Assembly: GCA_903917705.1 (NCBI GenBank)
Contig: CAIXBQ010000141.1
Coordinates: 26,861-90,860 of the forward strand
Length of the DNA: 64,000 nt
Source: an uncultured Verrucomicrobia subdivision 3 bacterium
Lineage (GTDB): Bacteria > Verrucomicrobiota > Verrucomicrobiia > Limisphaerales > UBA11358
Direction: 5' to 3'
The notes beneath the pieces were generated by a model. It worked only from the letters and a program-made list of their open reading frames with translations. It had not been told where the DNA came from and searched no databases. Within the stretch, counting starts at the first letter, position 1. Every line of letters begins with the position of its first letter. Made by a program: the position numbers and the translations under genes. Of this stretch, positions 5,108 to 53,512 are shown piece after piece.

Positions 5108-8194
<3,087 letters not shown>

Positions 8195-15930: not shown

Positions 15931-16014
15931 ACCGCCCGGGCGATACTTTTTTAATGACACGACGACCCGCGGCGTCAAGAATACCGGTTTGAATCCGCCG
16001 CCGAATCACAACGC

Positions 16015-16728
16015 ATGACCGTCACCCTTTTCATCCCGTGCTTCGTGGACGCGCTGTATCCGCGCGCGGGCATCAGCATGGTGGAAATCCTCGAACGCCT
16101 GGGCCACACCGTGATCTGCCCGGAGGCAATCGCCTGCTGCGGCCAGCCGCCCTTCAATTCCGGCTACTGGGACGAGGCCCGCACCATCGCCCGGCCGGTG
16201 CTGGAATCATTGAAGGCGGCGGAAGCGGTGGTCATCGGCTCCGGCTCCTGCGGCGCGATGGTGAAGAAGTTTTACCCCGAGCTGTTCGCCAACACGGATC
16301 ACGCCGAACTGGCGAAGCAGGTGTCGGCCCGGACGTGGGAGTTCTCGGATTTCCTGGTCAACAAGCTCGGAGCGACCGACCTCGGGGCGACGTTTCCGCA
16401 CAAGGTCACGTTCCACGACGGCTGCCACGGCCTGCGCGAGCTCGGCATCCAGAAACAACCGCGCGCGCTGCTGGCCAGCGTCCGCGGCCTGGAACTGGTC
16501 GAGATGGGCGAGGTGTCGTGCTGCGGCTTCGGGGGGACGTTCGCCGCGAAGTTTCCGATGATCTCCACCGCGATGGGCGAGGTGAAATGCGCGGCCGCGG
16601 CCGAGACGAACGCGGAATACATCGTCTCCAGCGATTCGAGCTGCCTGATGCACATCCAAGGACTGCTGTCGCGCCAGGGCAAGCCGACCAAAACCATCAG
16701 CCTGGCCGAGGTGCTGAACCACAAATAA
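16015..16728 (+). CDS. lutA: L-lactate dehydrogenase complex, Fe-S oxidoreductase subunit LutA/LldE (CCG domains)
   Basis: MTVTLFIPCFVDALYP...CCGQPPFNSGY...CCGFGGTF. Typical LutA/YkgE protein. Confidence 0.9.
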   Translation: MTVTLFIPCFVDALYPRAGISMVEILERLGHTVICPEAIACCGQPPFNSGYWDEARTIARPVLESLKAAEAVVIGSGSCGAMVKKFYPELFANTDHAELAKQVSARTWEFSDFLVNKLGATDLGATFPHKVTFHDGCHGLRELGIQKQPRALLASVRGLELVEMGEVSCCGFGGTFAAKFPMISTAMGEVKCAAAAETNAEYIVSSDSSCLMHIQGLLSRQGKPTKTISLAEVLNHK

Positions 16729-16775
16729 TTTTTGCCACAGATGGACACAGATGGAACACAGAAGGGCATCAGCGC

Positions 16776-18176: not shown

Positions 18177-18880
18177 AGAAGGCAGAAACAATTTTGAACG
18201 AGCGTGACAATATCCTTGGCCGCATCCGCGAGGCATTGAAAGCGAGCGCCCCCCTGCCCGGCTCGCATGGCGGCAGCCATGAACACACACCAGCCGGACC
18301 GCCCGCCAGCCACGCGCGCGAATGGCTACCAGCCGTCGGTACGAGCGCGGCGGAACAATTTGAATTGTTCGCGAGAAATGCCGCCGACTTGAAGGCGGAT
18401 TTTCAACTGCTGGCCAGCCGCGAGGAATTGAAAGCCGCGCTCATCAAGCTGCGCGACGCCGGGAAATGGCAGCGGATCGCCAGCCACGGCGGCGAACTGA
18501 CCGACTTCGCCGGCAAGTCCCTCGGCCTGCCAGTGACGCTCACCGACCGCGGCTATGACGTGCAGGAAATGGAGCAGTGCGACGCGGGCATCACCGAATG
18601 CGACGCGCTGATCGCCCAGACTGGCAGCGTGGCGGTGACCAGCCGCAGCGCGGGCGGCCGCGCACTGTCGGTGCTGCCGCCGCATCACGTCGTCATCGCG
18701 CGGCGCGACCAACTCGTCGCGGACCTGCCTGCCGCGTTCGCGCGGCTGCAGGAGAAATACGCGCCGGATTTTCCTAGCATGATCTCCTTCATCACCGGCC
18801 CCAGCCGCACCGGCGACATTGAGCGCATCCTGGTTTTGGGGGCGCACGGGCCGAAGAAGCTGACGATTTTGTGTATATAA
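18173..18880 (+). CDS. lutC: Lactate utilization protein LutC/LldG (LUD domain)
   Basis: The start MKKAETILNERDNILGRIREAL overlaps the lutB stop (ATGA). C-terminal motif GPSRTGDIE..LVLGAHGP. Confidence 0.85.
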   Translation: MKKAETILNERDNILGRIREALKASAPLPGSHGGSHEHTPAGPPASHAREWLPAVGTSAAEQFELFARNAADLKADFQLLASREELKAALIKLRDAGKWQRIASHGGELTDFAGKSLGLPVTLTDRGYDVQEMEQCDAGITECDALIAQTGSVAVTSRSAGGRALSVLPPHHVVIARRDQLVADLPAAFARLQEKYAPDFPSMISFITGPSRTGDIERILVLGAHGPKKLTILCI

Positions 18881-19024: not shown

Positions 19025-20773
19025 TCAGTAGGCAAGGTTCTTGTGGTCCTTGCCGTGGCAACTCAAGGTGCAATTGCCATGGTTCATGCCGGTGGAGGAA
19101 TAGTTGATCACGCCATGGAGGGGCTGGACATAGGCAGTGTTAAAATTGATCAAGTGAGGCTGGGTGGCGGCGTGGGAATCATGGCAGGTTGTGCAGGCGG
19201 CCTTATAGTCTTCGATATGCGTCCGATGATTCGGCCAGCTCGTGGCAAGGGAACTGTCCACCACGGAACTGCTGTGGCATTTATAGCACAGAGCGAAATT
19301 CGCGGGATTGTAGGGGCTGCCATCAGTCAGGAGCAACATCCGCTCAAGCAACGGCGCAAAGGCCGACCCGTGCGGGCCATTCGCACCGGCACCGCCGGTG
19401 GCCGACCCCTGATCATTGTTATGACAATCGCCGCAGCCGACCAGGCTGGAAGTCGTCAAGGGCGGGATGAGGCTGGGCACGCCGGCATTTTTGCCGACGC
19501 TTTCCAGCGGATGGAACGAGGTGCTGCCGGGATTAAATTCCAGGCGGGTGTTGGTCTGCACAAACTGGCGCGGGACAAGGGCGGGGCCGCGACCGGCACT
19601 GTCGCCGTGGCAGCGAAAGCATAATTCATATTCGTGAATAACGGCGGGGAGCCGGCCACCACCCGCGCTGACGCCGGCGACGCCGGCCAAGGCGCCGGCG
19701 ACCTGAGTTTTCGCACCGGGAGCGCCACTGGAGGCATGCGGATTATGGCAATCCACGCATGTCACGTGACGAACCGGCGGGTTCACCAAATCCTCGCGCG
19801 CATTATGCGCGTCCGGCTCCATCGAAACAGGATGGGCGCTAAGCTTCTTCAAATCCACCGAAACATTCTTCCCAGGACCATCACCGGCATGACAGTCAAT
19901 ACAGTTTTTTTCCGGGGTGGAAAACCGCATCAACTCGAGTTTGGCGCCGGCGGCATGGGGCACATGGCAACTGGCGCAGGCGGTGTGCGCCACCGAGGCG
20001 GATACGGAAGCCTTGATAAGGTTGCCGTTTTTTGCCGGCCCAACTTGAACCGCGAGAGCCACCGGCAGCAGTTTACTGGAAACCGCATGGGCAGAGCCCG
20101 ACCAGTCGGGCAAGGTGTGACAAGTCAAGCAGAGCGCCGAACCAGTATTATCCCTGACCAGAAAACTTCCGTATTGATTGTTATGCGGGTCATGGCAGGT
20201 GGTGCATTGGAGCTGGCCGTTGCGATCCAAGGCGACTTCAGGCGGGAGGGTTCCGGGATCAACCAAATCGCCGGCGGCGGTGGCAAGGGGCGCATCATAA
20301 GTGAAGGAAACCGGATGATCCGAAGAAAGGTCAGTGCCCAAATTGTCCAGGCCGGCCGGCATGGCGGCGGTGTTCATGGAAATGCCACCCGCGCGGCTCC
20401 CAACCAGCCCCAGGGCAACCGTGCCATCGTGGCAGCTCAAGCAAAGGCGGGACGAACCGTTCGGCTGGCCGATGGTCACGTTCAAAGCCGTCAGCGTAGC
20501 GCTGCTATAGGGCGTGTAAGCCGCCGCGGACATCTGGTGATTCCAAAGCGGGCCGTCGGTGGCAGAGGCCCCGTGCGGCGCATGGCAAAACACACACACG
20601 TCCGACTCCGTGGTCGCGTGAACCGGGCCGGGACTGCTGACCGAAAGATTGTGGCGTGAATAAATGATGCTATTGGGATTGTCGGCAAAGGCGGCAAGAG
20701 CCAGGAAGACCAGACCGACCACCACCGCGGAAAGACGCTGGCGGCCCGAAACAAATTGCGGCGCGCGATTCAT
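19025..20773 (-). CDS. Secreted dodecahaem c-type cytochrome (11 CXXCH plus 1 CX3CH), built from three tetrahaem modules
   Basis: Signal peptide LVFLALAAFA/DN. Motifs CVFCH, CLSCH, CTTCH, CLTCH, CASCH, CIDCH, CVDCH, CFRCH, CGDCH, CYKCH, CTTCH and CTLSCH. The start overlaps the stop of the upstream NHL gene (20770..20773). Confidence 0.85.
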   Translation of the reverse strand: MNRAPQFVSGRQRLSAVVVGLVFLALAAFADNPNSIIYSRHNLSVSSPGPVHATTESDVCVFCHAPHGASATDGPLWNHQMSAAAYTPYSSATLTALNVTIGQPNGSSRLCLSCHDGTVALGLVGSRAGGISMNTAAMPAGLDNLGTDLSSDHPVSFTYDAPLATAAGDLVDPGTLPPEVALDRNGQLQCTTCHDPHNNQYGSFLVRDNTGSALCLTCHTLPDWSGSAHAVSSKLLPVALAVQVGPAKNGNLIKASVSASVAHTACASCHVPHAAGAKLELMRFSTPEKNCIDCHAGDGPGKNVSVDLKKLSAHPVSMEPDAHNAREDLVNPPVRHVTCVDCHNPHASSGAPGAKTQVAGALAGVAGVSAGGGRLPAVIHEYELCFRCHGDSAGRGPALVPRQFVQTNTRLEFNPGSTSFHPLESVGKNAGVPSLIPPLTTSSLVGCGDCHNNDQGSATGGAGANGPHGSAFAPLLERMLLLTDGSPYNPANFALCYKCHSSSVVDSSLATSWPNHRTHIEDYKAACTTCHDSHAATQPHLINFNTAYVQPLHGVINYSSTGMNHGNCTLSCHGKDHKNLAY

Positions 20774-21834
20774 GGTTTGCTGAGATAGCGAAACATCTGG
20801 AGCCGATGATTGTAGGCATCAGCCACGAAAATTTCATTTTTGGAATTGATTACGATGGCATTGGGGAGGCAGAACTGGCCGGCGGCGGATCCCGCCCCGC
20901 CCCAGTCCAGCAACAACTGGCCAGCCTCGTCAAAAATCTGCACATTATTAAAAACACCGTCCACGACATAAACGTGCCCGTCGCGGTCCACGGCCACGCC
21001 CTTGGGCCGGCTGAAACACCCCGGTCCGTCGCCCGCGCTGCCGAAGGCGCGCAGGAAGCGACCATCCGGGTCAAAGACCTGAATGCGGCAATTCAAAGAA
21101 TCCGTGACATAGATGCGGCGATGGCCGTCCACGCTGACGTGCGTGGGGAAATTGAATTCGCCCGGCCCAAGCCCCCGGCGGCCAAACCGGGAAATGAATT
21201 CGCCTTGCAGCCCGCAGACAACAATCTGGTGGCGCTGCGAGTCCGCGATCAGCAAATGGTCGCCGGCCAGCGCCAGACCGGCGGGCCGCTCGAGACCGTT
21301 GGTGATGGCAAACCGAATTTTCCCCTGCTCGTCAAAGGCCAGCACCTTGCCCAAGCCGGAGTCAGCGACAAAAAATGTCGGCCCGCGCCGGACGGCGGAC
21401 ACCGGCGACAAGAAGGGGGTGCCGCCAACCGATGACCAGCGCAGCCATTTTTTACGGGCGAAGTCCAGATAACAAACCGTGGCGGAACCGGTGTCGGCGA
21501 CCAGAAGATTGCCCGCCTCGTCCAGGGAAAGTCCGAAAGGCCGATTCAATTTCTGCCGGCCATTGTTGACCCCGGTGATCCAGTTGGCGAACCGGAGCAA
21601 CGCCGCCGGGCGGACCCCGATATCCGGCGGCCCGGAAATATCCCGCACATAAACCACGCGCGGTTCGGCGGGCGGCGGCGGCCAGGCGGGGGCCGGTTTA
21701 GACCCGGCGAGCGCAGACAGCGGGAAGAGCAGACCGAGCCACGCCGCAAAAACAAAAATGCTCCGGAACCGCAAACCACCGGGGCACGGTGGCGACGGCG
21801 ACGCGGAGGGAGATGATTTCAGCAAACGTGACAT
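20770..21834 (-). CDS. Secreted NHL-repeat six-bladed beta-propeller protein
   Basis: Repeated NHL units (G.F..P.G(V/I)AVD..G..YV(A/V)D..N.R(I/L)Q(V/M)F). N-terminal hydrophobic signal FVFAAWLGLLFPLSALAG. Confidence 0.8.
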   Translation of the reverse strand: MSRLLKSSPSASPSPPCPGGLRFRSIFVFAAWLGLLFPLSALAGSKPAPAWPPPPAEPRVVYVRDISGPPDIGVRPAALLRFANWITGVNNGRQKLNRPFGLSLDEAGNLLVADTGSATVCYLDFARKKWLRWSSVGGTPFLSPVSAVRRGPTFFVADSGLGKVLAFDEQGKIRFAITNGLERPAGLALAGDHLLIADSQRHQIVVCGLQGEFISRFGRRGLGPGEFNFPTHVSVDGHRRIYVTDSLNCRIQVFDPDGRFLRAFGSAGDGPGCFSRPKGVAVDRDGHVYVVDGVFNNVQIFDEAGQLLLDWGGAGSAAGQFCLPNAIVINSKNEIFVADAYNHRLQMFRYLSKP

Positions 21835-21835
21835 A

Positions 21836-23857
21836 TCAGAAAGATCGCCTCAGATAGGTGAAGAATCGATGTTTAATGCGTTCTTCCGACCAACCGCCGG
21901 CCGCGGTTGACTGGGAGTTAAATTCATAGCCGGCGCGCAGGCTCAATTTGCCGCGCGTCCAGCCCAGACCGGTACGCGCCATGCCCTGAACCAGCTGGTT
22001 GCCAGCCACCTGCTGCACCAGGCCGCCGCCCTCGACATACCACTTGATGGACATCGGCAGCAAGGTATTGTAGCGGGCCATGAACTGGTATTGCGACTGG
22101 TCCGGACTGCCGGGGTAAGTGTAAAACGATTGGCTGAAATCCAAACTCAACGAGGACACGCCGGTCAGGTCGAACTCAAAATTCTGGAATAAACGCAGCG
22201 ACTGATACCGGGTAAAATTGGAATCGTAGCTTTCAAGTTCCGCGCCGGTGCGGAACCACTTGCGATGATAATCCACACCGCCGACCAGATCGGTGAGCGT
22301 CTGGGTGAGCACCACCGGCGGCGCATTGTTATCGAGCCAGTTCACCCGACCGTAAACACCGAATCGATTGAACAAATCCAGCCGGAACTGGCCATTAGCA
22401 CTGAAGGTGTCGTAGGAGCTGCTCCCCACCGGATCGCTCTGGTAGGTAACCGTGACCGAAAGATTGTCATTCGTTTGCAACAGGCCCTGAAGATGACTGC
22501 CGGGCGGAACCACCAGTTTGATTTCCGTCAATTCACCGGAATGAACGATCGTGTAGTCCGCCGGATTGGCGAGCGTATCAGCTCCGGCGCTGACGACAAT
22601 GGTGGAATCAACGACCCGGGGACGGTTTAAATAGACCGGGTGGTAGCCGAGGCTGGTGGACAGATAAAGCTGATGCGGCTCCGCGAACGTCGTAAGCATG
22701 GCGCCGGAGGAATCCTGATCCTGATGGTCGACCACGAGTCCGGTTCCCACCGCCAGCCGGCCCCACGATTGCAAGCGCTTGGTATAATTTTCAGACAGCC
22801 CGAGCCCATATTGATCAAAAGTGGAACCGCCCCCGGCCGCAGTGTCCTCCTGATGCGTGCCATGGCCTTCGAGACTGGACGTGAGACTTTCGTAAAGCTG
22901 ATGACGGACACCGGCGGTGCCCTGCACCCGCGAAGAAACAATGGGATTCAACTCACTGCGGTTGAAATTCATCATCAGGTAGCTGTCCAGATTGGGCCGG
23001 TGGTTGACGAGCAGGTTTTCACTCGCGTTCAAGGTGTCAATCTGCTGCCCGGAATAATCGGACTGGCTGTAACTCAAGCCGGTGCCGGCATTGATCTGCT
23101 TCCGATGGCCGAACGTTTCTGAATCGGAAAGGCCCGCCGACCAGTTGCTGGTATCCAGGCGGCTGCCATAATTCAAAACATTTTCCAACTCGCTGGCATG
23201 CAAACTCAAAGTCGTCTGGCCGGATTTCCGCTGATGGATGCCAAGGAAATTAAAATATGTTTCGGTGATCTGCGAGGAATCCGTCAGGCCGGAAGCCGTC
23301 TCGTCGCGATACCCCAAATCCGCGTTCAGGCTGAACTCGCCCGCATTGCAATTAATGCGTCCGCCGTAACGATTCGCGTCCACCGTGTAGGTATTGAAGG
23401 TGCCGTAGTCGCGGAAGGTGTGGTCTTGCGCGGCGAAGACGGAGACATTGTAAGGCTTGGCCGAAAGCAGATTGAACTGGGCCAGATAACGGAGCAATTC
23501 CGCGCTCTCATTGCGGGTCTGCCCAGAGCCCGGACCACCGGACGTCATGTTGTCCCAGCCCCACCCCAAGTCGCCGCTCAAATCAAACGCCAGGAGGTTG
23601 GGATGATAAATCGAACCGGTGGTATGGAGTCCCACCAACGGCGTAACGGAAGTATGATCGTAGGTGCTGCTGCCACCGCTGACCCGCGTCTGTTCCGTGG
23701 AACCTTCCGCCTCGACGCCCACGCTCACCTCGGGCAGGCCGTTCAACTTGAACCACTCGGGGTCTTCCGCCCGAACCGCGGGGGCAATACCCGCCGCAAA
23801 ACCGAGGACGGACAGGCCGGCGAACCAGCGATAGCGATGGAAACACCCCAAATTCAT
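21836..23857 (-). CDS. Large outer-membrane beta-barrel protein (porin-like, family unknown)
   Basis: 673 aa. Signal peptide ...GIAPAVRA/EDP. Long runs of alternating polar/hydrophobic Y/G/S/T/N-rich strands. C-terminal ...FFTYLRRSF ends in an aromatic residue, as in BAM substrates. Its start overlaps the stop of the 15-haem gene. Confidence 0.7.
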   Translation of the reverse strand: MNLGCFHRYRWFAGLSVLGFAAGIAPAVRAEDPEWFKLNGLPEVSVGVEAEGSTEQTRVSGGSSTYDHTSVTPLVGLHTTGSIYHPNLLAFDLSGDLGWGWDNMTSGGPGSGQTRNESAELLRYLAQFNLLSAKPYNVSVFAAQDHTFRDYGTFNTYTVDANRYGGRINCNAGEFSLNADLGYRDETASGLTDSSQITETYFNFLGIHQRKSGQTTLSLHASELENVLNYGSRLDTSNWSAGLSDSETFGHRKQINAGTGLSYSQSDYSGQQIDTLNASENLLVNHRPNLDSYLMMNFNRSELNPIVSSRVQGTAGVRHQLYESLTSSLEGHGTHQEDTAAGGGSTFDQYGLGLSENYTKRLQSWGRLAVGTGLVVDHQDQDSSGAMLTTFAEPHQLYLSTSLGYHPVYLNRPRVVDSTIVVSAGADTLANPADYTIVHSGELTEIKLVVPPGSHLQGLLQTNDNLSVTVTYQSDPVGSSSYDTFSANGQFRLDLFNRFGVYGRVNWLDNNAPPVVLTQTLTDLVGGVDYHRKWFRTGAELESYDSNFTRYQSLRLFQNFEFDLTGVSSLSLDFSQSFYTYPGSPDQSQYQFMARYNTLLPMSIKWYVEGGGLVQQVAGNQLVQGMARTGLGWTRGKLSLRAGYEFNSQSTAAGGWSEERIKHRFFTYLRRSF

Positions 23858-25209
23858 CTGGCCGGCGGCGGCGCCTGGCCGCCCGTTTTATTCACCGCAC
23901 CGGCCTTGAGCAAATACTTGTCACCGCCGACATGCGGATCATGACACGCCGTGCAAGATTTTCCCGCGGCGCCGGCATGACCCTTGACCGCCTGCAAATC
24001 CTTATCGTCATGGCAGTCGCCGCAGAGCTTCAAAATGTTTTTGGCGAGCAAATGGGACTCCGCCGACTGGTGCGGCTTGTGGCAGCCGGTGCAGTCCTCG
24101 ACCACATCGTGCTTGAACCTGGCCTTCTCCAAAAAATTGTCGTGGCATTCCCAGCACAGGGCCGGCGGGGATTTCTTCACCATGGCCTTTTTGTCGGTCG
24201 CATGGGGGTTGTGGCAGGCCGTGCAATCGCCGTCGGCCACGGGCTGATGGACGACCTTGGCGGTCTTGGACGGAAGGTCGTCGTGGCAACCCGCACACGT
24301 CTCCTTGACCGGCTTTTTCAGCAGGCCTTTGATGTTTCCCGCGTGGGGATTGTGACACTCCAGACAATCACCGTCGCCGACCGGCTGATGCACAACTTTT
24401 TTGGTCCCAATAAGGTCGTCATGACAGCCCAAGCAGGTCTCCTTGACAGGTTTTTTGAGGAGCTTCTTGATTTTGCCGGCATGCGGCGTGTGACATTCCA
24501 GGCAGTCCCCATCGCCCACGGGCTGGTGAACCTTTTTTTTGTTTCCGATCAGGTCATCATGACATTCAAGACAGGTGTCCTTGACAGATTTTTTCAGCAG
24601 ACTTTTGAAATTGGTGGAGTGAGGCGCGTGGCAGTCGGTGCATTCGCCCGCCTCAACCGCCTGATGCCTGACCTTACCGGCGGCGAGCGGGTCATCGTGG
24701 CAAGTCAGGCAGAGCGCCGGGACGGGTTTCTGCAGAAGTTTTTTGTTCGGCGAATGGTGCGGATTGTGACAACTCTTGCAATCGCCCTCATCCACGGGCT
24801 GATGCTTGATCTTGCCGGCCAGAAAATTCGTATGCAGCACCGTGTGGCAGACGAAGCAGGCCTCGCCCGGCTTGCCCCGCATGGCATTGGAAAATTGGGA
24901 TTCGTGGCAGGCGGTGCAATTCCGCGCCGCGAACGGCGGGTGCATGACCTCTTTTGGCATCGGCGGCCGAGCCACCACCGGCGCCGGAGCATTGGTTGCC
25001 TGCGGGGCGCGCGGATCCCCGGCGACAACGACCGGGGCGTTGGTGACGCCGCCCAGCGGCGGAACGCCGTCAAAGAAAACCGACAGCCACGCATGCCGCT
25101 TCTCCGTGCTGCAACCGAACAGCAGCGACAGGGCGCAAAGCACAAGGCAGCCCCCCCCCGCCCGGCGCCAAGCCCGGCGGTAAATAGATTTTGAAAGTGG
25201 CAAACTCAT
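23854..25209 (-). CDS. Lipoprotein pentadecahaem c-type cytochrome with tandem 46-aa dihaem modules
   Basis: Lipobox LLFGC. 15 CXXCH motifs. Repeated unit VHQPVGDGDC.ECH.PHAG.IK.LLKKPVKETC.GCHDDL. Confidence 0.85.
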   Translation of the reverse strand: MSLPLSKSIYRRAWRRAGGGCLVLCALSLLFGCSTEKRHAWLSVFFDGVPPLGGVTNAPVVVAGDPRAPQATNAPAPVVARPPMPKEVMHPPFAARNCTACHESQFSNAMRGKPGEACFVCHTVLHTNFLAGKIKHQPVDEGDCKSCHNPHHSPNKKLLQKPVPALCLTCHDDPLAAGKVRHQAVEAGECTDCHAPHSTNFKSLLKKSVKDTCLECHDDLIGNKKKVHQPVGDGDCLECHTPHAGKIKKLLKKPVKETCLGCHDDLIGTKKVVHQPVGDGDCLECHNPHAGNIKGLLKKPVKETCAGCHDDLPSKTAKVVHQPVADGDCTACHNPHATDKKAMVKKSPPALCWECHDNFLEKARFKHDVVEDCTGCHKPHQSAESHLLAKNILKLCGDCHDDKDLQAVKGHAGAAGKSCTACHDPHVGGDKYLLKAGAVNKTGGQAPPPAR

Positions 25210-25233
25210 TCTTCCCTGAAAAAACCCCCAGCC

Positions 25234-26325
25234 TCAAGGTGTGGCCGGCTTTTTTAGAAACCCATAAACGCTGACCTTGTTCGGGCCGAACTGGCTGGTA
25301 ACCAGAATCAAGTAGTCACACTGGCAACCCGGCGCGAGGTATTTCTGAAAATACCCAAGGTGGTCGTAATCCACCTTGATGGACGCCGGCAGCGTCAGTT
25401 GACCGCGCGTGCTGGTGCCCGGCTGGCCGAAATACATAAGCAGCCGGCCCTCCGCATCAAAGATCTGCACCACCTGCGTGGCGGCATCCACCACATAAGC
25501 CCGGCCCTGATGATCCACCGCCACGCCTTTGGGGCGGGCAAAGCTTCCCGGCGCCAAGCCCTGCCGCCCGAGCGTTCGCAGATATTTTCCGTCTAGGTCA
25601 TAGACCTGGACCACAAACCCGCCGACATCGGACACCAGCAACCGGCCGTTCTGGTCCAGCGCCAGGTTGGCGGGGGAATAAAGGGTTCCCGCGTTGGTCG
25701 CGGCGCTATTGGCGGCCGGGATGGTGAACAAGAGTTGCTGATCCGCCTTGCTATAAACCCGGACGACATGATTGAGCATGTCGCCCACATAAATCCGGTT
25801 GGTCGAAACCGCCACGTCCGCCGGCTTCATCTCGTCTTTTTTCCCGATGGCACTTAAAAAATTGCCGTCGTTGTCATAGATCACCACCTGATTCCGGCCG
25901 GTATCGGCCACATACCGCGTGCCGTCGGCATCAATGGTGAGATTAATCGGCGTCCGGAGTTTCCCCTCGCCCGGCGGAGCGAAGTAAGCCGCCCGGTGTT
26001 TGTTCAGGTCAAACACCTGGATCATGCTGCCCACGGTGTCGCAAACATAGATTTTGCCGCCATGCAACGCCAAACCGTAAGGCTTGACGAGACTGCCCAC
26101 CGGCTGTTGCCCGGTGATAAAATCGCCAAAAGTCCTGGTGCGCCCCAGCTCAGCATCAGAGGAGAACGAAGTCAGAAATTGAATCCGCGGCTCATCCGGA
26201 GACGGCGGGAAAAAAGTGTAACTCGTCCTGGCGGCGGGCTTGGTGGCGGCGCAGCCAGCCAGCAACCACAGCAAAAGGCAGCTGCCGGACATCCAAACAA
26301 GCCCGCGTTTAATCATGAAGATCAT
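25234..26325 (-). CDS. NHL-repeat beta-propeller lipoprotein
   Basis: Start taken at MIFMIKRGLVWMSGSCLLLWLLAGC (lipobox LLAGC). NHL units such as GRNQVVIYDNDG, LNHVVRVYS and ATQVVQIFDAEG. Confidence 0.8.
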   Translation of the reverse strand: MIFMIKRGLVWMSGSCLLLWLLAGCAATKPAARTSYTFFPPSPDEPRIQFLTSFSSDAELGRTRTFGDFITGQQPVGSLVKPYGLALHGGKIYVCDTVGSMIQVFDLNKHRAAYFAPPGEGKLRTPINLTIDADGTRYVADTGRNQVVIYDNDGNFLSAIGKKDEMKPADVAVSTNRIYVGDMLNHVVRVYSKADQQLLFTIPAANSAATNAGTLYSPANLALDQNGRLLVSDVGGFVVQVYDLDGKYLRTLGRQGLAPGSFARPKGVAVDHQGRAYVVDAATQVVQIFDAEGRLLMYFGQPGTSTRGQLTLPASIKVDYDHLGYFQKYLAPGCQCDYLILVTSQFGPNKVSVYGFLKKPATP

Positions 26326-26616
26326 GGGTAAATTCGTATTATAAATCAGCTCGAAGGCCGCGTTCGGCGCTCCAAGAATGGCCAACAAAGTTACACGCCC
26401 AAGCCAGAAAAACCAAGCGTCTTTTCCCGCCGAGTTATCAAGCCTGGCCCGGTTTTCCGCACATTCAGGTGCCGGCAATCAAACCGGCGCAAAAAATAGT
26501 CCGTTAAAACCGCCCCGAGACCCGGTCCCGTTTGCCAGGCCCGATAAAAAGCGGGCTTTGGTCAACCGATTTGACCAAAGCCCGCGCGATTCCAATCAAG
26601 CAACGAGACCTAACGA

Positions 26617-29004
26617 TTACTGAACCAAGATAAACTTGGTGCGGGTCAACGGCGAACCGTCAACCGTGCAGGTCACCGAGTAAAGACCCGGAGTGTTGTA
26701 GATATATGTCGGGTTGGCGCCAGTGGTGGATCCGCCATCCCCGAAAGTCCAATTATACACACCGCCGCTGCCGTAGCTATTGCTGAACGACACCGACAAC
26801 GGAGCGGAACCCGAGACCACGCTGGCCGAGAACGCGGCCGGATAGTTGCTGGTGACAAACTGGTTCATCACCCGGCTTTCCGCATCCGCGAGCAGCGATT
26901 TCACATAGGTCGGATTATGGACACCATAGCTCTGGTCTTCATAAATCCAATAGAGGCTAAAACGCGCCGTGCGAATGTCCTGCGGAACCGTTGACAACTG
27001 GAGGTTGTCATTGGTGCCGGACGGGACAAGGCCGAACGCGGGATTGTAGGCCTTGGGCGGGCCGACGCTGAACACCTTGCCGGCACCATTGGTAGATTTA
27101 GCGCCGAAATAAGCGAGCGGGCTGGGGTACTCCCAGGCGCACGTCCCGTAATTCGTCCGGAGGATAGCCGGAGCCACGGTGCTGCCCCATTGCTTCAACA
27201 GGGAGACCACGCGGTCCATGCTATTGGACACGGCGGCCTTGGAGTTGAAGGTCTTGGCCACCAACTGCGGCGCGGTCAAAGCGGAATGGCACGAGGCCAG
27301 ACAGCCGGCGTTATCCGAAACGAACGAGTGACCGGTGACATTGGTGCCGGCATTGACCGCGTAGCCCGGCACATGGCAGTCGGCACACTGGTTGGGTGCC
27401 AGGGTGTGAGGATCCGTGAGCACGTTTGCGGGACCGCCGCGCGCAGCCAGGTCATCATTCAACTGGCCGATGACCACGTTGTACTGCACGGGATAGTGCG
27501 GCGCATAATCGCCGGCGCTATTGCTGCTGTAATAAACCGTGCCACCATTGGTGTAGGCAATGAGCGGATAATAGATCCCCACGCCAACCACCGGATTGGT
27601 TGAGGTCGAAACAACATAGGATTGGTAGGTCACAGGATTACCCTGGATATTGGTGAACACCTGGCCGTATATGTTGGTATAAACCACGCTGTTCGTGGTA
27701 TACGCACTCACCAGATTGGTCGTTGTGATGGCCACCAGGTTGGTCACATAACCATAGGTCGAACCATCCCAGCGCGGACCGGCTCCGCCGATACCGCCGC
27801 CGCCACTATGGCACTGGCCACAGACCTGAACCTTGGGATTATAATACTGATCAAACACATTGTTCAGGGTGAGAGTATTAGTGGTAAACGTCCCGTTGTA
27901 ATTTGTGATGACCGCCGTGGTTGTCAGCAAAAGCGGCACCACATGGCTATAGTTGGTGGAGAAGGTAGGATAACGCAACTGGGCGACATAATTGGACGAA
28001 TGCGGGTCATGGCAGGTCGCACAGGCGGCCGCCCCGACCGAACCCATAGCCCCCGCGAATGAACCGGGGAACAAGGTCAGCGGATGCGGGCTGCCCGCCT
28101 TGTTGTCATAATATTCCTTGACCATGACCATGCGCTGGTCGGCCAAATGGCAAACCTGACAAGCTCCACTGTGGCTACCGACGCTATGGCCCACGCTGCC
28201 TTTGATAATGCCCATGGGCAGATTGGTAACACTGCTGGCAATAATATTGGTGTACTCCTGGAAGGTGGGATGCAGACTGCCCTGATGGCAACTGCCGCAG
28301 ATGTTCGGATCCAAGCTGACCACCGGAAGGATCAGGGCGTGGTCGCTGTTCTTGTGCCAGCCAGCCGGGCCGTGGCAGTTTTCGCAGCCTACGTTCTCCA
28401 GGTTGGGGGTGGTCGCGGGATCCACAAAACCGGTCTGCTGGCCATAGCCAACGGTCAGGCACGCCAGCGAGAACCGGTTGGAAACAGCCGGATTGCTATA
28501 AACCCCCGAATGCGTGGTCTTTTTATATGGGGTGTATTTGTTACCGTGACAACCGGCACACTGGTCAGAGCCGGCATAGCTGTTGGCCTGGGCCAACCGG
28601 AAGCTATAACTGTTGGTCGGATCGGGCTTGGGTGCGGTGAAGGTCCCGGCAAAACTCGACGAGATCACGGTGCCAAGGGTGAGCCAAGGTCCTGTGACGA
28701 TATTCGTGGTAGCCTGGATGCTATACCACCCGTTCACGCCAAACCATTTCAAGGTGAAATTGGTCGGGGTGTTGGTCGGGGTAAATGTGACCGTGGGGTT
28801 CTGATAGGCCGCAGCGCACACGCCGCCACCGGAGTTAAACGGGGCCAGGGTGCCCGCCACGTAATTGGAGGCCAGCCCGTATTGATTCGTCTGCGGCGGC
28901 AGCGACAGCGACTGTGCCGTGGCCGCAAACACACCGCCCAGCAGCAAACCCGTCGCCAAGACGGATTGTGCGCGGCGCATGAGATTATGGTTCATTAGTT
29001 TCAT
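26617..29004 (-). CDS. Secreted multihaem c-type cytochrome (7 CXXCH plus 1 CX3CH) with a C-terminal PKD domain
   Basis: Start at MKLMNHNLMRRAQSVLATGLLLGGVFAATAQS. Motifs CAGCH, CENCHGP, CGSCH, CQVCH, CATCHDPH, CGQCH, CADCH and CLASCH. C-terminal PKD signature YNWTFGDGGSTTGANPTYIYNTPGLYSVTCTV. Confidence 0.8.
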   Translation of the reverse strand: MKLMNHNLMRRAQSVLATGLLLGGVFAATAQSLSLPPQTNQYGLASNYVAGTLAPFNSGGGVCAAAYQNPTVTFTPTNTPTNFTLKWFGVNGWYSIQATTNIVTGPWLTLGTVISSSFAGTFTAPKPDPTNSYSFRLAQANSYAGSDQCAGCHGNKYTPYKKTTHSGVYSNPAVSNRFSLACLTVGYGQQTGFVDPATTPNLENVGCENCHGPAGWHKNSDHALILPVVSLDPNICGSCHQGSLHPTFQEYTNIIASSVTNLPMGIIKGSVGHSVGSHSGACQVCHLADQRMVMVKEYYDNKAGSPHPLTLFPGSFAGAMGSVGAAACATCHDPHSSNYVAQLRYPTFSTNYSHVVPLLLTTTAVITNYNGTFTTNTLTLNNVFDQYYNPKVQVCGQCHSGGGGIGGAGPRWDGSTYGYVTNLVAITTTNLVSAYTTNSVVYTNIYGQVFTNIQGNPVTYQSYVVSTSTNPVVGVGIYYPLIAYTNGGTVYYSSNSAGDYAPHYPVQYNVVIGQLNDDLAARGGPANVLTDPHTLAPNQCADCHVPGYAVNAGTNVTGHSFVSDNAGCLASCHSALTAPQLVAKTFNSKAAVSNSMDRVVSLLKQWGSTVAPAILRTNYGTCAWEYPSPLAYFGAKSTNGAGKVFSVGPPKAYNPAFGLVPSGTNDNLQLSTVPQDIRTARFSLYWIYEDQSYGVHNPTYVKSLLADAESRVMNQFVTSNYPAAFSASVVSGSAPLSVSFSNSYGSGGVYNWTFGDGGSTTGANPTYIYNTPGLYSVTCTVDGSPLTRTKFILVQ

Positions 29005-29121
29005 ATTATTTTTTGTTGGTTCATGCGCCGTCACGAGGACCGCCCGGCCAGCCGCCGCCCCAACGGGCGGTCGACAGGCACGGGCAATCGATTCATAAGC
29101 GGGCACAGCGGACGTAGCTGA

Positions 29122-29853
29122 TTACTTGTTATGGCAACTGCGGCAGAGCAAGCTGCCGACGCCACCGGCGGTGCCGTTAATTTTGACGAGGTGCGGATTG
29201 TTAACAATGTTATACGGCGAACCTTCCTGGTTGTGCACGTCGTGGCAGGAATTGCACTCCAGATTGCCCTGCTGATTGAGCAAGAAACCCCTGATGCTCA
29301 TGTCGTTGCCGGGCGTGAAACCGGGCGAATTGGCGTCCGGGGCCAACACGGGGTTCGCGGAGTCATAGATCCACTTGTCCTGGCCCGGGCCCGTTCCAAC
29401 GATGGACTGGTAGTTGAAGGAGATCGGATGCGAGTGGGTCAGATTTTTGCTGTTTTCGGAGATGGCGGCACCGTTGGTGATATATTCCGAACTCGCGACA
29501 CTGCCATAGGCATTGACCGCGATGGAGCCGTCATGGCAGCTCAAGCACGCCAGGGAACTGCCGGTCGGAGCCGACGCCGGAGTATATTTGATGTTGGCTC
29601 CCGGAGAAGCGCCATTGGCATACATCTGCCATCCCGAGGCGGAAATTGCCGTATGACCCCAGAGCGGGCCGGTGTTGGGATCGGCATGGTGGGGCGTGTG
29701 ACACACAGCACAGACCGTGGCCGGATTGGCCGGGTCGTTATTCCACGCACGGGAGTGGAAATCATGCGGACTGCCAAGGATGCCCGCCCGGGCGGTCAAG
29801 GTCAGCAGGGAGCCTGCGACCACGGTCAGAGTGAGGAGGTGTGTGTTTTTCAT
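29122..29853 (-). CDS. Small secreted tetrahaem c-type cytochrome
   Basis: 243 aa. Signal peptide LTLTARAG. Motifs CAVCHTPHH, CLSCHDG, CNSCHDVH and CRSCHNK. Collinear with the first module of the dodecahaem protein. Confidence 0.85.
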   Translation of the reverse strand: MKNTHLLTLTVVAGSLLTLTARAGILGSPHDFHSRAWNNDPANPATVCAVCHTPHHADPNTGPLWGHTAISASGWQMYANGASPGANIKYTPASAPTGSSLACLSCHDGSIAVNAYGSVASSEYITNGAAISENSKNLTHSHPISFNYQSIVGTGPGQDKWIYDSANPVLAPDANSPGFTPGNDMSIRGFLLNQQGNLECNSCHDVHNQEGSPYNIVNNPHLVKINGTAGGVGSLLCRSCHNK

Positions 29854-30062
29854 ATAATTTTCAGGTAACTACGCGCGTTGTGTTTGTTGTTGTTCTTGTC
29901 TGTTCGGTTCTGTTTATACGCGGGCGGATATCGACGCCGCGCATTGTATAATCCGACAATCTTTTGATGCCGGTTTTCCGACAGCAGACGCGCTCAGCGG
30001 CAAACCTGCCGTATCGAATCCACTGTCAAAATTGTTAAAAAATTTCATGTCCTTCATCGGTC

Positions 30063-31148
30063 TCAAGCACGACAAACCGAGGCCCCATCAATCGTCCAGC
30101 CGGGCGCGGTCTCAACCGCGACCGGGGCACGCCGGGCATAGGGCGAATTAAATCGCTCCATCAATTCCATCACGTGTTCGGCAATGATCTGCCGGCACAC
30201 CGCGAGCTCCTGCTCGCGATTTTTGGTGTTTTCGCGAACGACGGCTTCCAGATCATCGATATCATAAAGGTAGACGTCCGGAAGTTCCGCCACCGCCGGG
30301 TCGATGTCGCGCGGCACCGCGATGTCCACCAGCACCAGCGGCCGGTGCCGGCGCGCGGGCAAAATCTTCGCCACATCCTCGCGTTTCAAGACAAGGTCGG
30401 GGCTGCCGGTCGAGCTGACGAGAATGTCCGCCTCGGTCATCGCCGCCGCCGAATCCTCGATCCGCACGGCGCGGCCGCCAAATTCCGCCGCCAGCCTCTC
30501 CGCGCGCTCGAACGAGCGGTTGGAAACGAGGACGGTTTTGGCTCCGCGCTTGGCCAGATGTTTCACGCAAGCCTCACCCATCTTGCCCGCGCCCAAAATC
30601 ATCACGGTCTTCTTGCTCAAATCCCGGTCGAACACTTTTTCCGCAAGTTCCACCGCCACACTGCCCACCGAGGTCGCACCGCGGCCGATGCCGGTGTTCG
30701 TGCGGACGGCCTTCACCACCGACAAGGCGGTCTGGAACAGCCGGTTCATCTTCTTACCCACGAGGCCGGCGTCCTTCGCCGCCTGATACGCGGTCTTGAC
30801 CTGGCCGGTGATCTCCGTTTCGCCGATCACCAGCGAGTCCAAACCGCTGGCCACCGCAAAGAGATGTTCCGCCGCCGCGGCGCCTTCCTTGACGTAGAGA
30901 TGCGGGGTGAAATCGAAATCGCTGCCGGTAAGCTCCTGAAACAGCCGCTGAACGCGGCCCTGAATCCACGGGGCCACGCCATAGATCTCGACGCGGTTGC
31001 AGGTGGAGAGCAGGACGACCTCGGCGAGATTGCCGCGCAGCTTGAGGCGGCAGCCGCAGCATTGCAAGCGCGAGCGGTGGACCGCGAGTTTCTCGCGCAC
31101 CTCCACCGGCGTGGTCTTGTAGCTCAAGCCTGCAACAAAGATATTCAT
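30063..31148 (-). CDS. hemA: Glutamyl-tRNA reductase
   Basis: MNIFVAGLSYKTTPVEVREKLA...LSTCNRVEIY...ILGAGKMGE. Canonical HemA. Confidence 0.9.
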   Translation of the reverse strand: MNIFVAGLSYKTTPVEVREKLAVHRSRLQCCGCRLKLRGNLAEVVLLSTCNRVEIYGVAPWIQGRVQRLFQELTGSDFDFTPHLYVKEGAAAAEHLFAVASGLDSLVIGETEITGQVKTAYQAAKDAGLVGKKMNRLFQTALSVVKAVRTNTGIGRGATSVGSVAVELAEKVFDRDLSKKTVMILGAGKMGEACVKHLAKRGAKTVLVSNRSFERAERLAAEFGGRAVRIEDSAAAMTEADILVSSTGSPDLVLKREDVAKILPARRHRPLVLVDIAVPRDIDPAVAELPDVYLYDIDDLEAVVRENTKNREQELAVCRQIIAEHVMELMERFNSPYARRAPVAVETAPGWTIDGASVCRA

Positions 31149-31214
31149 GCCTCGATAATATTCAGACGACCTGCTGATGATGAACTTAAACCGCCGCCAA
31201 AAACGCGCTTACCA

Positions 31215-31250
31215 TATCTTGTCATTTACCGAACAACATTTGGCAAGATA
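31215..31250. promoter_or_regulatory. Imperfect inverted repeat TATCTTGTCA-N16-TGGCAAGATA between the cbcL-like gene and hemA
   Basis: The 10-bp arms match at 9 of 10 positions, seen directly. Function unknown (operator or RNA hairpin). Confidence 0.35.
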
Positions 31251-31279
31251 AAAGTTAGATTATAGGCTTACTTACTCGA

Positions 31280-33004
31280 TTAGATTTCCTTACCGCTCTC
31301 GAGGGTGCCCGGCGGGTCAGCGCGGAGCTGTTCCGCCGCGGGTTCCAGCGGATGTTCATGCAACTGAAACTCCTCGGAAATGCGCCCGTCCAGGCAGGCG
31401 GTATTAAGCGGGTAAACCTCCGGATCAAAGATGACGTGATAGAAATGCCAGACGATGATGGCCAGGCAGGCCAAAACCGCCTCGTAATAGTGGATGGTCG
31501 TCGCCACGGTCACCACCCACCGCGGCAGCCATTGCGTCACGTCAATCTTCAGCCAGATGGCCAAGCCGGTCGCGCCCATGATGATCGTGCCCCAGACCAC
31601 CGCCCAGTACTCCATCTTCTCGGCATAACCGAAACGGCCGATTTTTGGTTTCGATTTCGTGAAGCCACCCAGGTAACAAACGGCGTGCCACACGTCAGCC
31701 GCATCTTTTTTTACCGGGAACAGGTCGGCCACCAGTTTCCGTCCGTCACGGGTGGCGAGGAGATAAATCACGTGATACAAGCCGACCCCGAGCAGGATGA
31801 TGCCGGCGATGCGGTGCGTCCAGCGGCGGAACGGCTCGCTCGAACACATCACTTTCGCCAGCCAGGAATCGGGGAATTTCAGGGCGAAGCCCGTGATGGC
31901 CAGCACGATGAAGCTGGAGGCCAGCAGAAAATGCTGCCAGCGCTGCGACGCCGTCATCCGCACCACGGGTCGCTCCGTCATGCGCAGCCGCGCGGCCGTC
32001 TTCTTGAGGAACAAAATTCCGTTGTGGGCCAGCATGCCGCCGATGGTGCCGAAAATGAGAAGCATATAGATGTTCCGCACCCAGCGGTTCAACCGGCTGC
32101 CAAAATCAACCCCGCCCGCCTGTCCGTCCGGCGCGACGTGGATTTTGCCCAAGGAGAACTCGGTGTTCGCGCCCGGATGACATTTGCCGCACGTGGTCAC
32201 CAAGTTTGCCTTGCTGATGGTCGAGTTGGTGTCCGACGACGGCAGAATCTTATGGTAGCTGTGGCAACTGGCGCAATTCGCCGCGACGGTGGAACCATAT
32301 TGCGCTGCGAGGCCGTGGTAACTTTCAAAAAAGGTTTTCACCCGGTCCGCCGGCAGATTGTATTTGGTGTTCAACCGCTCGGACGAATGGCAGCGGCTGC
32401 ACACATCCTCGGAAATGGTCATGGTTGAACTCGTCTTGAGCGAACGGATTTTATGGTCGTCATGGCAGCCCGTGCAGGTCGGCGCGTCCTGCGAGCCGGC
32501 GGCCACCGCCTTGCCGTGGACGCTCGCCTGCCATTCGCGCGCCTCCTTGTCATGGCACGCGCCGCAGGTTTCCGCCTGACGCGCAAAATAGATCGGCGAG
32601 GTGGGCGAACGATCGCTAATGATCTCATGGGTATCATGGCAGTCGCGGCACGTGGCCGCGTCATCATGGCCGGATTTCAAGGCCAGGCCGTGAACGCTCG
32701 AATTGTAGCTTTCCGTCTGCCGCGCGTGGCACAAGCCGCAATTGACCGGGGCCAACGGCTTGCCGTCGTCGGGATGCTTGGTCGTGAGGTCCGCATGGCA
32801 ACTGATGCAGGAGTTGGTCTTGTGGGCGGACAATTTCAATTTGGCCGCATCCACGAACAATGAAATGGCCTTGCCGGCGGAATTGGTCTTGAACAGCGTG
32901 TTATCGCCATGGCAGTCAAGGCAGTCGCTATTTTTCAAGCCGGCCAGGGCCGGCAGCGCCGCGAGCATGAACAAGGTGAACAAAATGGGGAGACAGCGTT
33001 TCAT
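31280..33004 (-). CDS. Inner-membrane nonahaem c-type cytochrome fused to an FdnI/HydC-like dihaem cytochrome b (CbcL-like quinol oxidoreductase)
   Basis: Signal peptide plus 9 CXXCH motifs (CLDCH, CISCH, CGLCH, CRDCH, CGACH, CTGCH, CSRCH, CASCH, CGKCH). These are followed by about 5 TM helices carrying conserved His residues (RWQHFLLASSF, THRIAGIILLGVGLYHVIY, TTIHYYEAV...VWHFYHVIF). Confidence 0.8.
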   Translation of the reverse strand: MKRCLPILFTLFMLAALPALAGLKNSDCLDCHGDNTLFKTNSAGKAISLFVDAAKLKLSAHKTNSCISCHADLTTKHPDDGKPLAPVNCGLCHARQTESYNSSVHGLALKSGHDDAATCRDCHDTHEIISDRSPTSPIYFARQAETCGACHDKEAREWQASVHGKAVAAGSQDAPTCTGCHDDHKIRSLKTSSTMTISEDVCSRCHSSERLNTKYNLPADRVKTFFESYHGLAAQYGSTVAANCASCHSYHKILPSSDTNSTISKANLVTTCGKCHPGANTEFSLGKIHVAPDGQAGGVDFGSRLNRWVRNIYMLLIFGTIGGMLAHNGILFLKKTAARLRMTERPVVRMTASQRWQHFLLASSFIVLAITGFALKFPDSWLAKVMCSSEPFRRWTHRIAGIILLGVGLYHVIYLLATRDGRKLVADLFPVKKDAADVWHAVCYLGGFTKSKPKIGRFGYAEKMEYWAVVWGTIIMGATGLAIWLKIDVTQWLPRWVVTVATTIHYYEAVLACLAIIVWHFYHVIFDPEVYPLNTACLDGRISEEFQLHEHPLEPAAEQLRADPPGTLESGKEI

Positions 33005-44723: not shown

Positions 44724-44828
44724 CAGGAATTGCATAAACTAGCAAGGGATGAATTCTTACCTTGCCCGAAGCAATTGCTTCTTCAGGAATTGCATAACGA
44801 TTTACAGGAAGTGCTCTATCCTTTATTC
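44724..44828. promoter_or_regulatory. Divergent control region with CAGGAA half-sites and a conserved element of about 45 bp
   Basis: CAGGAATTGCATAA at 44724 and 44784. CAGGAA at 44805, 21 bp from 44784. The stretch 44783..44828 is about 90 percent identical to 58226..58270. Confidence 0.5.
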
Positions 44829-45021
44829 CTGCCTTGGCAGTAAAATCCCGCGACAGATAAACCAAAACCCGTCTTATGAAATGAAAATCAAGCGGATAAG
44901 CATACTCTTCCTGGTCGACGACATGGCGTCCGGCCTGTTTCAACTCGCCGCCGCTGCGCTCGGAACCACGGCAAGCCCCGCTGAGAAGCATTCCATAAGT
45001 GGAACAACAGGAAGCGCAGAA

Positions 45022-47979: not shown

Positions 47980-47989
47980 AGGCTCCATT

Positions 47990-53458: not shown

Positions 53459-53512
53459 CATCGGCATTTAATGACATTTTTCTTAACCATTAAAATAACC
53501 GAAAAAACATTC

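Follow-up and report, generated by a model that had tools for sequence, protein, structure and literature searches.

A multihaem cytochrome, beta-barrel and NHL propeller locus in a subdivision 3 Verrucomicrobiota genome, resembling OmcE, Uet and EET1 clusters

Genes and proteins of the cytochrome locus

The window analysed here is a stretch of 64,000 nucleotides (nt) from contig CAIXBQ010000141.1 of an uncultured Verrucomicrobia subdivision 3 (Limisphaerales) bacterium. Between positions 19025 and 33004, nine genes on its minus strand, designated g1 to g9 in the direction of transcription, encode multihaem cytochromes, a large outer-membrane (OM) beta-barrel, two NHL propellers and a haem biosynthesis enzyme. 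An original prediction, made from the sequence alone, had outlined these genes, and scripts run on the window sequence recovered the same nine open reading frames (ORFs) at the same coordinates. The scripts also returned the same haem motif tally, 46 CXXCH (9, 0, 4, 7, 0, 15, 0, 0 and 11 in g1 to g9) plus two CX3CH, the latter at residue 602 of g4 and residue 568 of g9. The close spacing of the last four genes was reproduced as well: g6/g7 and g8/g9 each overlap by 4 nt, and g7/g8 are separated by 1 nt. Domains were assigned with Pfam and NCBIfam, which upheld the earlier calls for g1, g2, g4, g5 and g8. According to hydropathy, each exported product, including the exported cytochromes, starts with a single hydrophobic signal segment. 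Because the barrel has 1311 representative homologues and synteny of the block extends to 75 genome loci, the ORFs are not a product of chance.

The first gene, g1 (31280..33004, minus strand), encodes a signal peptide, nine CXXCH motifs within residues 28-276 and a cytochrome b domain (PF01292 at residues 349-528, 54.3 bits against a cut-off of 30.1). The C-terminal part, with about five transmembrane segments by hydropathy, is a HydC/FdnI-like cytochrome b that matches TIGR01583 (FdnI-like) and PDB 1kqf_C (E 9e-7). A nine-CXXCH periplasmic domain joined to a HydC/FdnI-type dihaem cytochrome b is how the CbcL/MtoC/MtrH family has been described (PMC6295460), and by this architecture g1 is a predicted CbcL-type inner-membrane quinol oxidoreductase. 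A flavin reductase-like gene (PF01613; 33428-33976, minus strand) precedes g1 by 424 nt on its strand, with no established link to the cluster. The second gene, g2 (30063..31148, minus strand), is hemA, encoding a glutamyl-tRNA reductase of 361 amino acids. It matches TIGR01035 with 375.7 bits over model positions 1-335 of 416; its Pfam domains are limited to GlutR_N and Shikimate_DH, and the C-terminal GlutR dimerisation domain is missing.

The product of g3 (29122..29853, minus strand) is an OmcE-like tetrahaem cytochrome, secreted through a signal peptidase I (SPI)-type signal and a candidate extracellular or filament subunit. In a search of solved structures, it matched OmcE over nearly its full length, both in the filament of G. 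sulfurreducens (7tfs_A, E 3.8e-10) and in that of D. soudanensis (9yuq_N, E 9e-10). The last gene, g9 (19025..20773, minus strand), encodes a secreted 12-haem cytochrome with 11 CXXCH motifs and one CX3CH. In the same search, its residues 17-219 aligned to residues 5-230 of the 232 residues of 7tfs_A (E 5.3e-26), and its N-terminus also matched 9yuq (E 7.7e-22). A complete OmcE-like tetrahaem module makes up its N-terminal part, and the region after it contains eight further haems. The same OmcE-like N-terminus is found in the 10-12-haem homologues of g9 in related loci (n = 66), and the residues of its CX3CH motif (C568, C572 and H573) are invariant in 44 homologues.

We aligned 58 tetrahaem cytochromes of related loci with both solved OmcEs, and 62 sequences entered the column counts. 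The four CXXCH motifs and the four distal haem-ligand His residues (eight His and eight Cys columns) are kept in at least 97% of the aligned tetrahaems. Additionally, a ninth His in the motif PLW[GN]H (His67 of g3) is present in 92% of the cluster-type tetrahaems and recurs as His79 in the N-terminal module of g9.

The product of g4 (26617..29106, minus strand; likely true start at 29004) is an octahaem cytochrome (seven CXXCH and one CX3CH) with a C-terminal PKD domain (PF18911 and PF00801), which is accessory and probably surface-exposed. It matches PF02335 (Cytochrom_C552, E 7.5e-11) and the UshA-like region NF041198 (E 4.5e-17; 61.8 bits against a cut-off of 275), and it is weakly similar to OcwA (6i5b) and cytochrome c554.

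The 15-haem product of g6 (23854..25209, minus strand) is an MtrA/DmsE-like lipoprotein with the lipobox LLFGC and a candidate periplasmic or barrel-inserted haem rod. It contains eight copies of PF09699 (292 bits), scores 185 bits with TIGR03508 (DmsE/MtrA), just under the cut-off of 192.2, and matches MtrA in the PDB (6r2q_A, E 1.9e-15). Its haem motifs follow each other at intervals of about 23 residues, as would be expected of a linear rod with adjustable length.

The gene overlapping g6, g7 (21836..23857, minus strand), encodes a protein of 673 amino acids that starts with an SPI signal, ends in Phe and matched no family of Pfam or NCBIfam. An AlphaFold2 (AF2) model built from 40 homologues (mean pLDDT 82.9) consists almost entirely of long antiparallel strands, about 28-30 in number, with an insert at residues 399-474. 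In a Foldseek search of the PDB, the model matched only large OM barrels, namely LptD, TonB-dependent receptors, the usher pores FimD and PapC, SlpA and MtrB (6r2q_B, TMq 0.41), all at a sequence identity of about 10% or less. The earlier reading of g7 as a barrel was upheld, and a small or non-membrane fold was not seen in the model. The family is large and unnamed; a library clustered at 50% identity contains 1311 of its representatives at E <= 1e-3.

Two NHL beta-propeller paralogues flank the g6-g7 pair. Paralogue 1, g5 (25234..26478, minus strand; true start probably near 26325), is a lipoprotein with the lipobox LLAGC, and a lipobox is present in 47 of 61 g5 homologues. Paralogue 2, g8 (20770..21834, minus strand), has an SPI-type signal and not a lipobox. 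Pfam NHL and DUF5128 were matched in both proteins (PF01436, PF17170 and PF08450 in g5; PF01436 with 100 bits and PF17170 with 78 bits in g8). The mature N-termini are also alike: FFPPSPDEPRI follows the lipobox of g5, and AWPPPPAEPRV the signal of g8. A common motif, [FW]WPPxPxxPR[IV]x[WY], stands right after the signal peptide or lipobox in both window paralogues (20770-21834 and 25234-26325) and in the NHL proteins of Geobacter-type omcE clusters (loci L077, L088, L100, L103 and L125), whereas low-scoring generic NHL matches in the same loci do not carry the N-terminal WPPxPxxPR.

As originally proposed, there is a candidate for each layer of the envelope: a CbcL-type cytochrome for the inner membrane, a long multihaem lipoprotein for the periplasm, a very large barrel for the OM, and secreted multihaem cytochromes.

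Transcription units, conservation and genomic surroundings

The original prediction had spoken of an operon. A strong conserved terminator splits the g3/g4 unit from g5-g9. This intrinsic-terminator-like hairpin (26551..26585, minus strand; read from 26585 to 26551) lies 32 nt past the g4 stop codon and has a 15-bp stem with 9 G-C pairs, followed by TTTTT. We searched the related loci for such a structure within 220 nt after the gene preceding the NHL1 gene, which is g4 where present and otherwise the OmcE-like gene. A hairpin of dG <= -18 kcal/mol with a T-run was found in 32 of 54 loci and in none of 54 shuffled controls. Other junctions rarely had one (3/37 after hemA, 6/68 after g5, 0/61 after g9, and 1/16 after g3 when g4 follows). 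The stem sequences vary between lineages. A generic scan returned about as many sites as chance would give, 6 promoter-like (5.5 expected) and 22 terminator-like (19.3 expected); for this reason, only the single exceptional hairpin, which the cross-locus test backs, is used as evidence. Because of this terminator, the nine genes probably do not form a single operon. Pilus-type loci show this pattern, in which the machinery genes are set off from a subunit gene upstream by a terminator or attenuator. The product of g3, perhaps with that of g4, may be made in excess over those of g5-g9, which would fit the position of the terminator.

The conservation of the block was studied in one genome per species, where 75 loci encoding a relative of the barrel were found and their six-frame ORFs were searched with the nine window proteins. 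The collinear order OmcE-like tetrahaem-(g4)-NHL1-multihaem cytochrome-barrel-NHL2-11-haem cytochrome is kept in 46 of the 75 loci, and most of the remaining 29 are interrupted by contig ends. The block occurs in at least seven phyla, covering Verrucomicrobiota (35 loci), Omnitrophota, Myxococcota, Planctomycetota, Acidobacteriota, Spirochaetes and Pontiella, with rearranged versions in one gammaproteobacterial metagenome-assembled genome (MAG) and in Bacteroidia MAGs. NHL1 and NHL2 are distinct, anciently separated paralogues that hold their positions, and the multihaem cytochrome directly upstream of the barrel has 3 to 23 haems across loci. Outside this core, hemA precedes the block in 37 of the 75 loci, in several phyla including Omnitrophota and Pontiella, and a g1-like gene is present in about 20. 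The g4 gene was found in 22 loci, every one of Verrucomicrobiota.

The closest loci are those of Limisphaerales/subdivision-3 MAGs from palsa, bog and boreal lakes, in agreement with the Verrucomicrobia-like host suggested earlier. To date, no OmcE/Uet/EET1-type cluster in Verrucomicrobiota has been reported in the searchable literature. Five MAGs labelled 'uncultured Bifidobacteriaceae' (L002, L008, L009, L046 and L051; binchicken co-assemblies) also carry the cluster. Their label is almost certainly wrong, because their proteins share 53-75% identity with those of Verrucomicrobiota.

In the flanks of the locus, no prolyl isomerase, ccs/ccm, glycosylation or regulator gene was found to be clearly tied to it. 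Genes on the plus strand (13069-18880) encode the lactate-utilisation proteins LutABC and a 935-953-amino-acid fusion of FAD-oxidase, Fe-S and CCG parts (glycolate/D-lactate oxidase-like), and they converge on the 3' end of the cytochrome cluster. Two other regions (9289-12138 and 44749-58129) encode a GH106 rhamnosidase, two GH2 enzymes with F5/8 type C domains, GH95, GH20 and a sulfatase, a typical glycan degrader set of Verrucomicrobiota; the host is a polysaccharide-degrading heterotroph of peat or lake water. Between housekeeping genes and the glycoside hydrolase island sits a pair on the minus strand, an IS4/IS5-family DDE transposase (42579-43361) and a regulator with an AraC-type helix-turn-helix and a periplasmic-binding-protein-like domain (43505-44710). 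A class II (B12-dependent) ribonucleotide reductase with a C-terminal TSCPD domain is encoded at 5108-8194 (minus strand).

Relationship to described cytochrome clusters

The original prediction had called the locus unusual in composition and had recognised no Mtr or Ext signature in its products. Neither statement holds: g6 is MtrA/DmsE-like, g3 and the N-terminus of g9 are OmcE homologues, and the same parts have been described for the minimal omcE cluster, the Uet cluster and the EET1 core of Acidobacteriota.

The minimal omcE cluster comprises two multihaem cytochromes, two propeller lipoproteins, OmcE and a large barrel, and omcE contexts have been reported in five phyla, Verrucomicrobiota not among them (Petersen et al. 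2025, bioRxiv 10.1101/2025.10.22.684050). For reference, we searched metagenome contigs with the OmcE sequence from the PDB alignment. One locus (L077) encodes an OmcE 78% identical to that of G. sulfurreducens in the context purD-resB-ccsA-MHC9-MHC8-NHL-OmcE (MHC, multihaem cytochrome), as Petersen et al. describe; five others (L087, L088, L097, L099 and L100) continue with an NHL gene, a protein of about 750 amino acids without a Pfam family that ends in Phe, and glycosyltransferases. The NHL protein of L077 is matched by g8 at E 1e-50, and its two multihaem cytochromes are matched by g6 at E 5e-36 and 3e-18. The two kinds of cluster share an OmcE-type tetrahaem, two NHL proteins with WPPxPxxPR, MtrA-like cytochromes with paired CXXCH motifs and a Pfam-less barrel ending in Phe, and both adjoin haem or cytochrome-maturation genes. 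The Geobacter-type barrel and g7 are also alike in size and in barrel fold.

The correspondence is partial for the two MtrA-like cytochromes (8-9 haems) that the Geobacter-type cluster has upstream of OmcE: in the window only g6 (15 haems) is homologous to them, and the second multihaem cytochrome, g9, is of a different type, an OmcE fusion that was not found in the Geobacter-type reference loci. Two propellers are present in each, but g8 has an SPI signal and no lipobox. The gene order is MHC9-MHC8-NHL-OmcE-NHL-barrel in the Geobacter type and OmcE-like-NHL-MHC15-barrel-NHL-12-haem in the window, and the glycosylation island is not in the window locus. Given the homology of the NHL proteins and g6 and the common motif, yet barrels without detectable relationship and no g9 fusion in the Geobacter type, sequence comparison places the window locus as a sister architecture (Uet/EET1-like with a fusion cytochrome) and not as the Desulfuromonadia type. 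In three metagenome loci (L136, L138 and L146), cytochromes of about 1020 amino acids with 24 CXXCH motifs were observed beside 5-haem OmcE-like proteins, NHL proteins and 11-haem OmcE fusions. The 5-haem type fits the 'possible new nanowire family' of Petersen et al.

The Uet cluster of 'Ca. Tenderia electrophaga' consists of a tetrahaem cytochrome, a prolyl isomerase, a barrel of about 28 strands, three trihaem c7 cytochromes, a cupredoxin, two NHL proteins and an undecahaem cytochrome; it is expressed on cathodes and was interpreted as a porin-cytochrome conduit (Eddie et al., bioRxiv 10.1101/2022.05.06.490989). It is also present in some Gallionella (PMC10734462). By composition alone, the window shares with it the tetrahaem (UetA), the barrel of about 28 strands (UetC), the two NHL proteins (UetH and UetI) and the secreted 11-CXXCH cytochrome (UetJ). 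The prolyl isomerase UetB, the trihaem c7 cytochromes UetD/E/G, the cupredoxin UetF and the ccsAB-nrfG-batABD tail belong to Uet but were found neither in 19025-33004 nor in the flanks. The window has instead a 15-haem MtrA-like lipoprotein, plus the CbcL-type protein, hemA and the octahaem-PKD cytochrome, and electron flow through Uet was proposed to be inward. A search with the barrel of the gammaproteobacterial locus (L072) returned no relative named Tenderia; the relatives were labelled Nitrospinota, Rokubacteria, Methylomirabilis, and Alpha- and Gammaproteobacteria.

EET1 of peat Acidobacteriota is a core of a porin, an NHL protein and a 13-haem OmcE-like cytochrome that is transcribed in peat (Fiorito et al. 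2026, bioRxiv 10.64898/2026.05.27.727921). The order barrel-NHL-OmcE-like is that of g7-g8-g9, the cytochromes of both match OmcE 7tfs (g9 at E 5e-26), and both come from peat. The EET1 porin resembles MtrB only at the level of the fold (TM 0.48; 0.41 for g7). EET1 was described for Acidobacteriota only, and only as a three-gene core. An Acidobacteriota locus of our set (L062) has the same order, and its barrel matches the hidden Markov model of the window barrel family (A1) at E 3.7e-35; it may be a counterpart of the published EET1.

The porin-cytochrome clusters of freshwater Verrucomicrobia to which the original prediction alluded are of a different type. The Verrucomicrobial EET3 and EET4 combine an UshA-like/OcwA-like nonahaem cytochrome, an octahaem MtrA-like cytochrome and a PF11854 or PEP-CTERM porin (bioRxiv 10.64898/2026.05.27.727921), and the clusters of He et al. 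2017 fit the same description. Identity with these systems was rejected: g7 has neither PF11854 nor TIGR03016, and g6 has 15 haems against 8. Among the window proteins, g4 alone shares the UshA-like/OcwA-like extracellular cytochrome region (NF041198).

MtrCAB is similar in that the gene of a haem rod with paired CXXCH motifs lies immediately upstream of, and overlaps, the barrel gene, with g6 resembling MtrA and the barrels having a similar fold. It differs in that g6 has 15 haems and a lipobox, and g7 has more strands and no PF11854; MtrCAB has no NHL propellers or OmcE modules. An MtrC/OmcA decahaem was not found in the locus, where the best TIGR03507 score was 49.6 bits against a cut-off of 209. 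The D. ferrophilus clusters DFE_0448-0451 and DFE_0461-0465 combine multihaem cytochromes with NHL proteins proposed to stabilise an OM cytochrome complex (PMC5815863; PMC9769857); no barrel or porin is reported for them, and their likeness to the window is one of description. The same applies to the osc cluster of G. sulfurreducens, as summarised in PMC13194489 (citing Shen et al. 2025), in which a nanowire cytochrome gene is accompanied by channel-like OscEFG, propeller-like OscD and the prolyl isomerase OscH, proposed to act in secretion, filament morphology and folding. According to that summary, this cluster differs in serving the hexahaem OmcS family and in including a prolyl-isomerase chaperone.

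Proposed function, alternatives and significance

Real and conserved, the locus very probably encodes an extracellular-electron-transfer apparatus. It is not a categorically new conduit; it belongs to a recurrent and recently described kind, here in its Verrucomicrobial form. We consider it reasonably probable that this is an OM multihaem cytochrome apparatus of the OmcE/Uet/EET1 kind that has an inner-membrane entry point and a haem supply of its own. The homologies, export signals, barrel fold, conserved gene order and coupling, and terminator are the observations from which we infer its function, the direction of electron flow and filament formation. In the scheme we propose, g1 would take electrons from the menaquinol pool, and g6, a lipid-anchored 15-haem rod, would carry them over the periplasm into or up to g7. 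The OM would be crossed within or alongside g7, the propellers g5 and g8 would scaffold cytochromes on the barrel, and g9 would form the outer end of the conduit. Meanwhile, g3 and g4, secreted from their separate, terminator-closed transcription unit, would attach to the OmcE module of g9, or polymerise from it, and hand electrons on to acceptors outside the cell. The hemA gene could support the demand for 48 haems per protein set.

Electrons most likely flow outward, to Fe(III) or to humic or particulate organic matter, because the window is rich in glycoside hydrolase and sulfatase genes, LutABC is adjacent and the relatives live in peat and lakes. Ferrihydrite reduction has been shown in cultured Limisphaera isolates, though with other cytochrome loci. 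The direction is not fixed by these arguments, since the CbcL family and Uet have also been tied to electron uptake.

Several points weigh against the proposed scheme. Both OmcEs with solved filaments have Arg (PLWNR) where the OmcE-like proteins of the window have the ninth His, and a 4-haem, 9-His OmcE-like protein was predicted to cap a filament and not to extend it, being an ideal stopper (Petersen et al.). Because of this extra conserved His, we put the formation of long filaments by g3 at somewhat less than an even chance. For g9, the AF2 model built from a 44-sequence alignment had a pLDDT of 36.5 and was unusable. A profile-profile comparison with hhalign between the family of g7 (A1) and the Desulfuromonadia omcE-cluster barrels (A3, from L087, L092, L094, L097 and L099) gave a probability of 0.1% and E 0.66; in view of this lack of similarity, the two barrels are treated as analogous, homology not being established. 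The comparison of the window barrel family with the smaller barrels of other g9-containing metagenome loci (A4) was likewise negative. Members of the CbcL family also occur in Fe(II) oxidisers (PMC6295460). In addition, deletion of the related NHL-cytochrome clusters of D. ferrophilus left Fe(III) oxide reduction unimpaired (PMC5815863; PMC9769857).

The barrel and its two propellers might alternatively form an usher-like secretion or assembly machine for the OmcE-like subunits, and the exported cytochromes would then receive their electrons in some other way. The omcE-cluster barrel was described as 'putatively functioning as a secretion or anchor' (Petersen et al.), the Osc proteins are given such roles for OmcS in PMC13194489, the structural neighbours of g7 include FimD, PapC and LptD, and the terminator leaves the machinery genes as a less strongly expressed operon downstream of the subunit genes, an arrangement that pilus loci share. 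Set against this are the translational coupling of the g6 haem rod gene to the barrel gene, like that of mtrA to mtrB, the coupling of the 12-haem cytochrome gene to the second propeller gene, and the result of the domain searches, which found neither an ATPase nor a chaperone or prolyl isomerase within the locus or next to it. A machine acting in secretion instead of conduction is unlikely in our estimation, although the two roles are not mutually exclusive. The same hardware could also be run inward, taking up electrons from reduced humics, Fe(II) or a partner cell, as proposed for Uet and for the NHL-cytochrome clusters of D. ferrophilus. Uet, with its matching set of parts, is expressed by an autotroph that oxidises cathodes and is present in Gallionella. 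The D. ferrophilus clusters are induced at electron-donor limitation, alongside electrode uptake, and the Fe(II)-oxidiser members of the CbcL/MtoC/MtrH family point in the same direction. This window is nevertheless that of an organotroph (GH106, GH2, GH95, GH20, sulfatase and LutABC), no carbon-fixation or high-potential oxidase genes were found near the locus, and the related peat lineages have been reconstructed as heterotrophs short of electron acceptors (bioRxiv 10.64898/2026.05.27.727921); we give electron uptake a similarly small chance.

A role of g4 as a periplasmic octahaem reductase of a soluble N or S oxyanion, fed by g1 and with the barrel importing its substrate, is highly improbable. 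It would be in line with the matches of g4 to the NrfA family and cytochrome c554 and with its weak similarity to OcwA, a reductase of both oxyanions and solids. However, g4 is missing from 53 of the 75 loci that retain the other genes of the module, it lacks a CXXCK motif and matches no NrfA, Otr, MccA or HAO equivalog above threshold, and its PKD domain is typical of surface proteins. What is conserved as the core are electron carriers of the OmcE-like and MtrA-like types. A nitrite, sulfite or tetrathionate reductase was rejected as the principal interpretation, given the missing equivalog and the dispensability of g4 across loci, and no known periplasmic reductase system, which the original prediction had named as a competing outcome, was found in the domain searches.

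Within the favoured reading of an OM cytochrome apparatus, we speculate that g9 anchors an extracellular cytochrome filament, its C-terminal haem region sitting in or on the barrel and its OmcE unit nucleating or capping a g3-type polymer. We hold this extension for tentative and on balance rather doubtful. If true, g9 would be the missing electrical and mechanical link between nanowire and cell, and the apparatus would have a wide distribution over at least eight phyla, with the dominant peat Verrucomicrobiota and Acidobacteriota among its carriers. No such anchor candidate is encoded in Geobacter omcE operons, according to Petersen et al.

New in this analysis are the conserved terminator between g3/g4 and g5-g9, the g9 fusion, the ninth His and the breadth of the family across phyla. 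The range of OmcE-type clusters extends well past the five reported phyla, and the g9 OmcE fusion, the ninth conserved His and the conserved terminator between subunit and machinery genes are leads on how nanowires may be made and attached. Subdivision 3/Limisphaerales are abundant polysaccharide degraders of bogs, palsas and humic lakes, habitats poor in inorganic electron acceptors and with CO2:CH4 ratios that lack an explanation. A complete and conserved OmcE-type OM apparatus combined with a CbcL-type quinol entry would give these bacteria a genetic route for respiring humic or particulate organic matter, in competition with methanogenesis.

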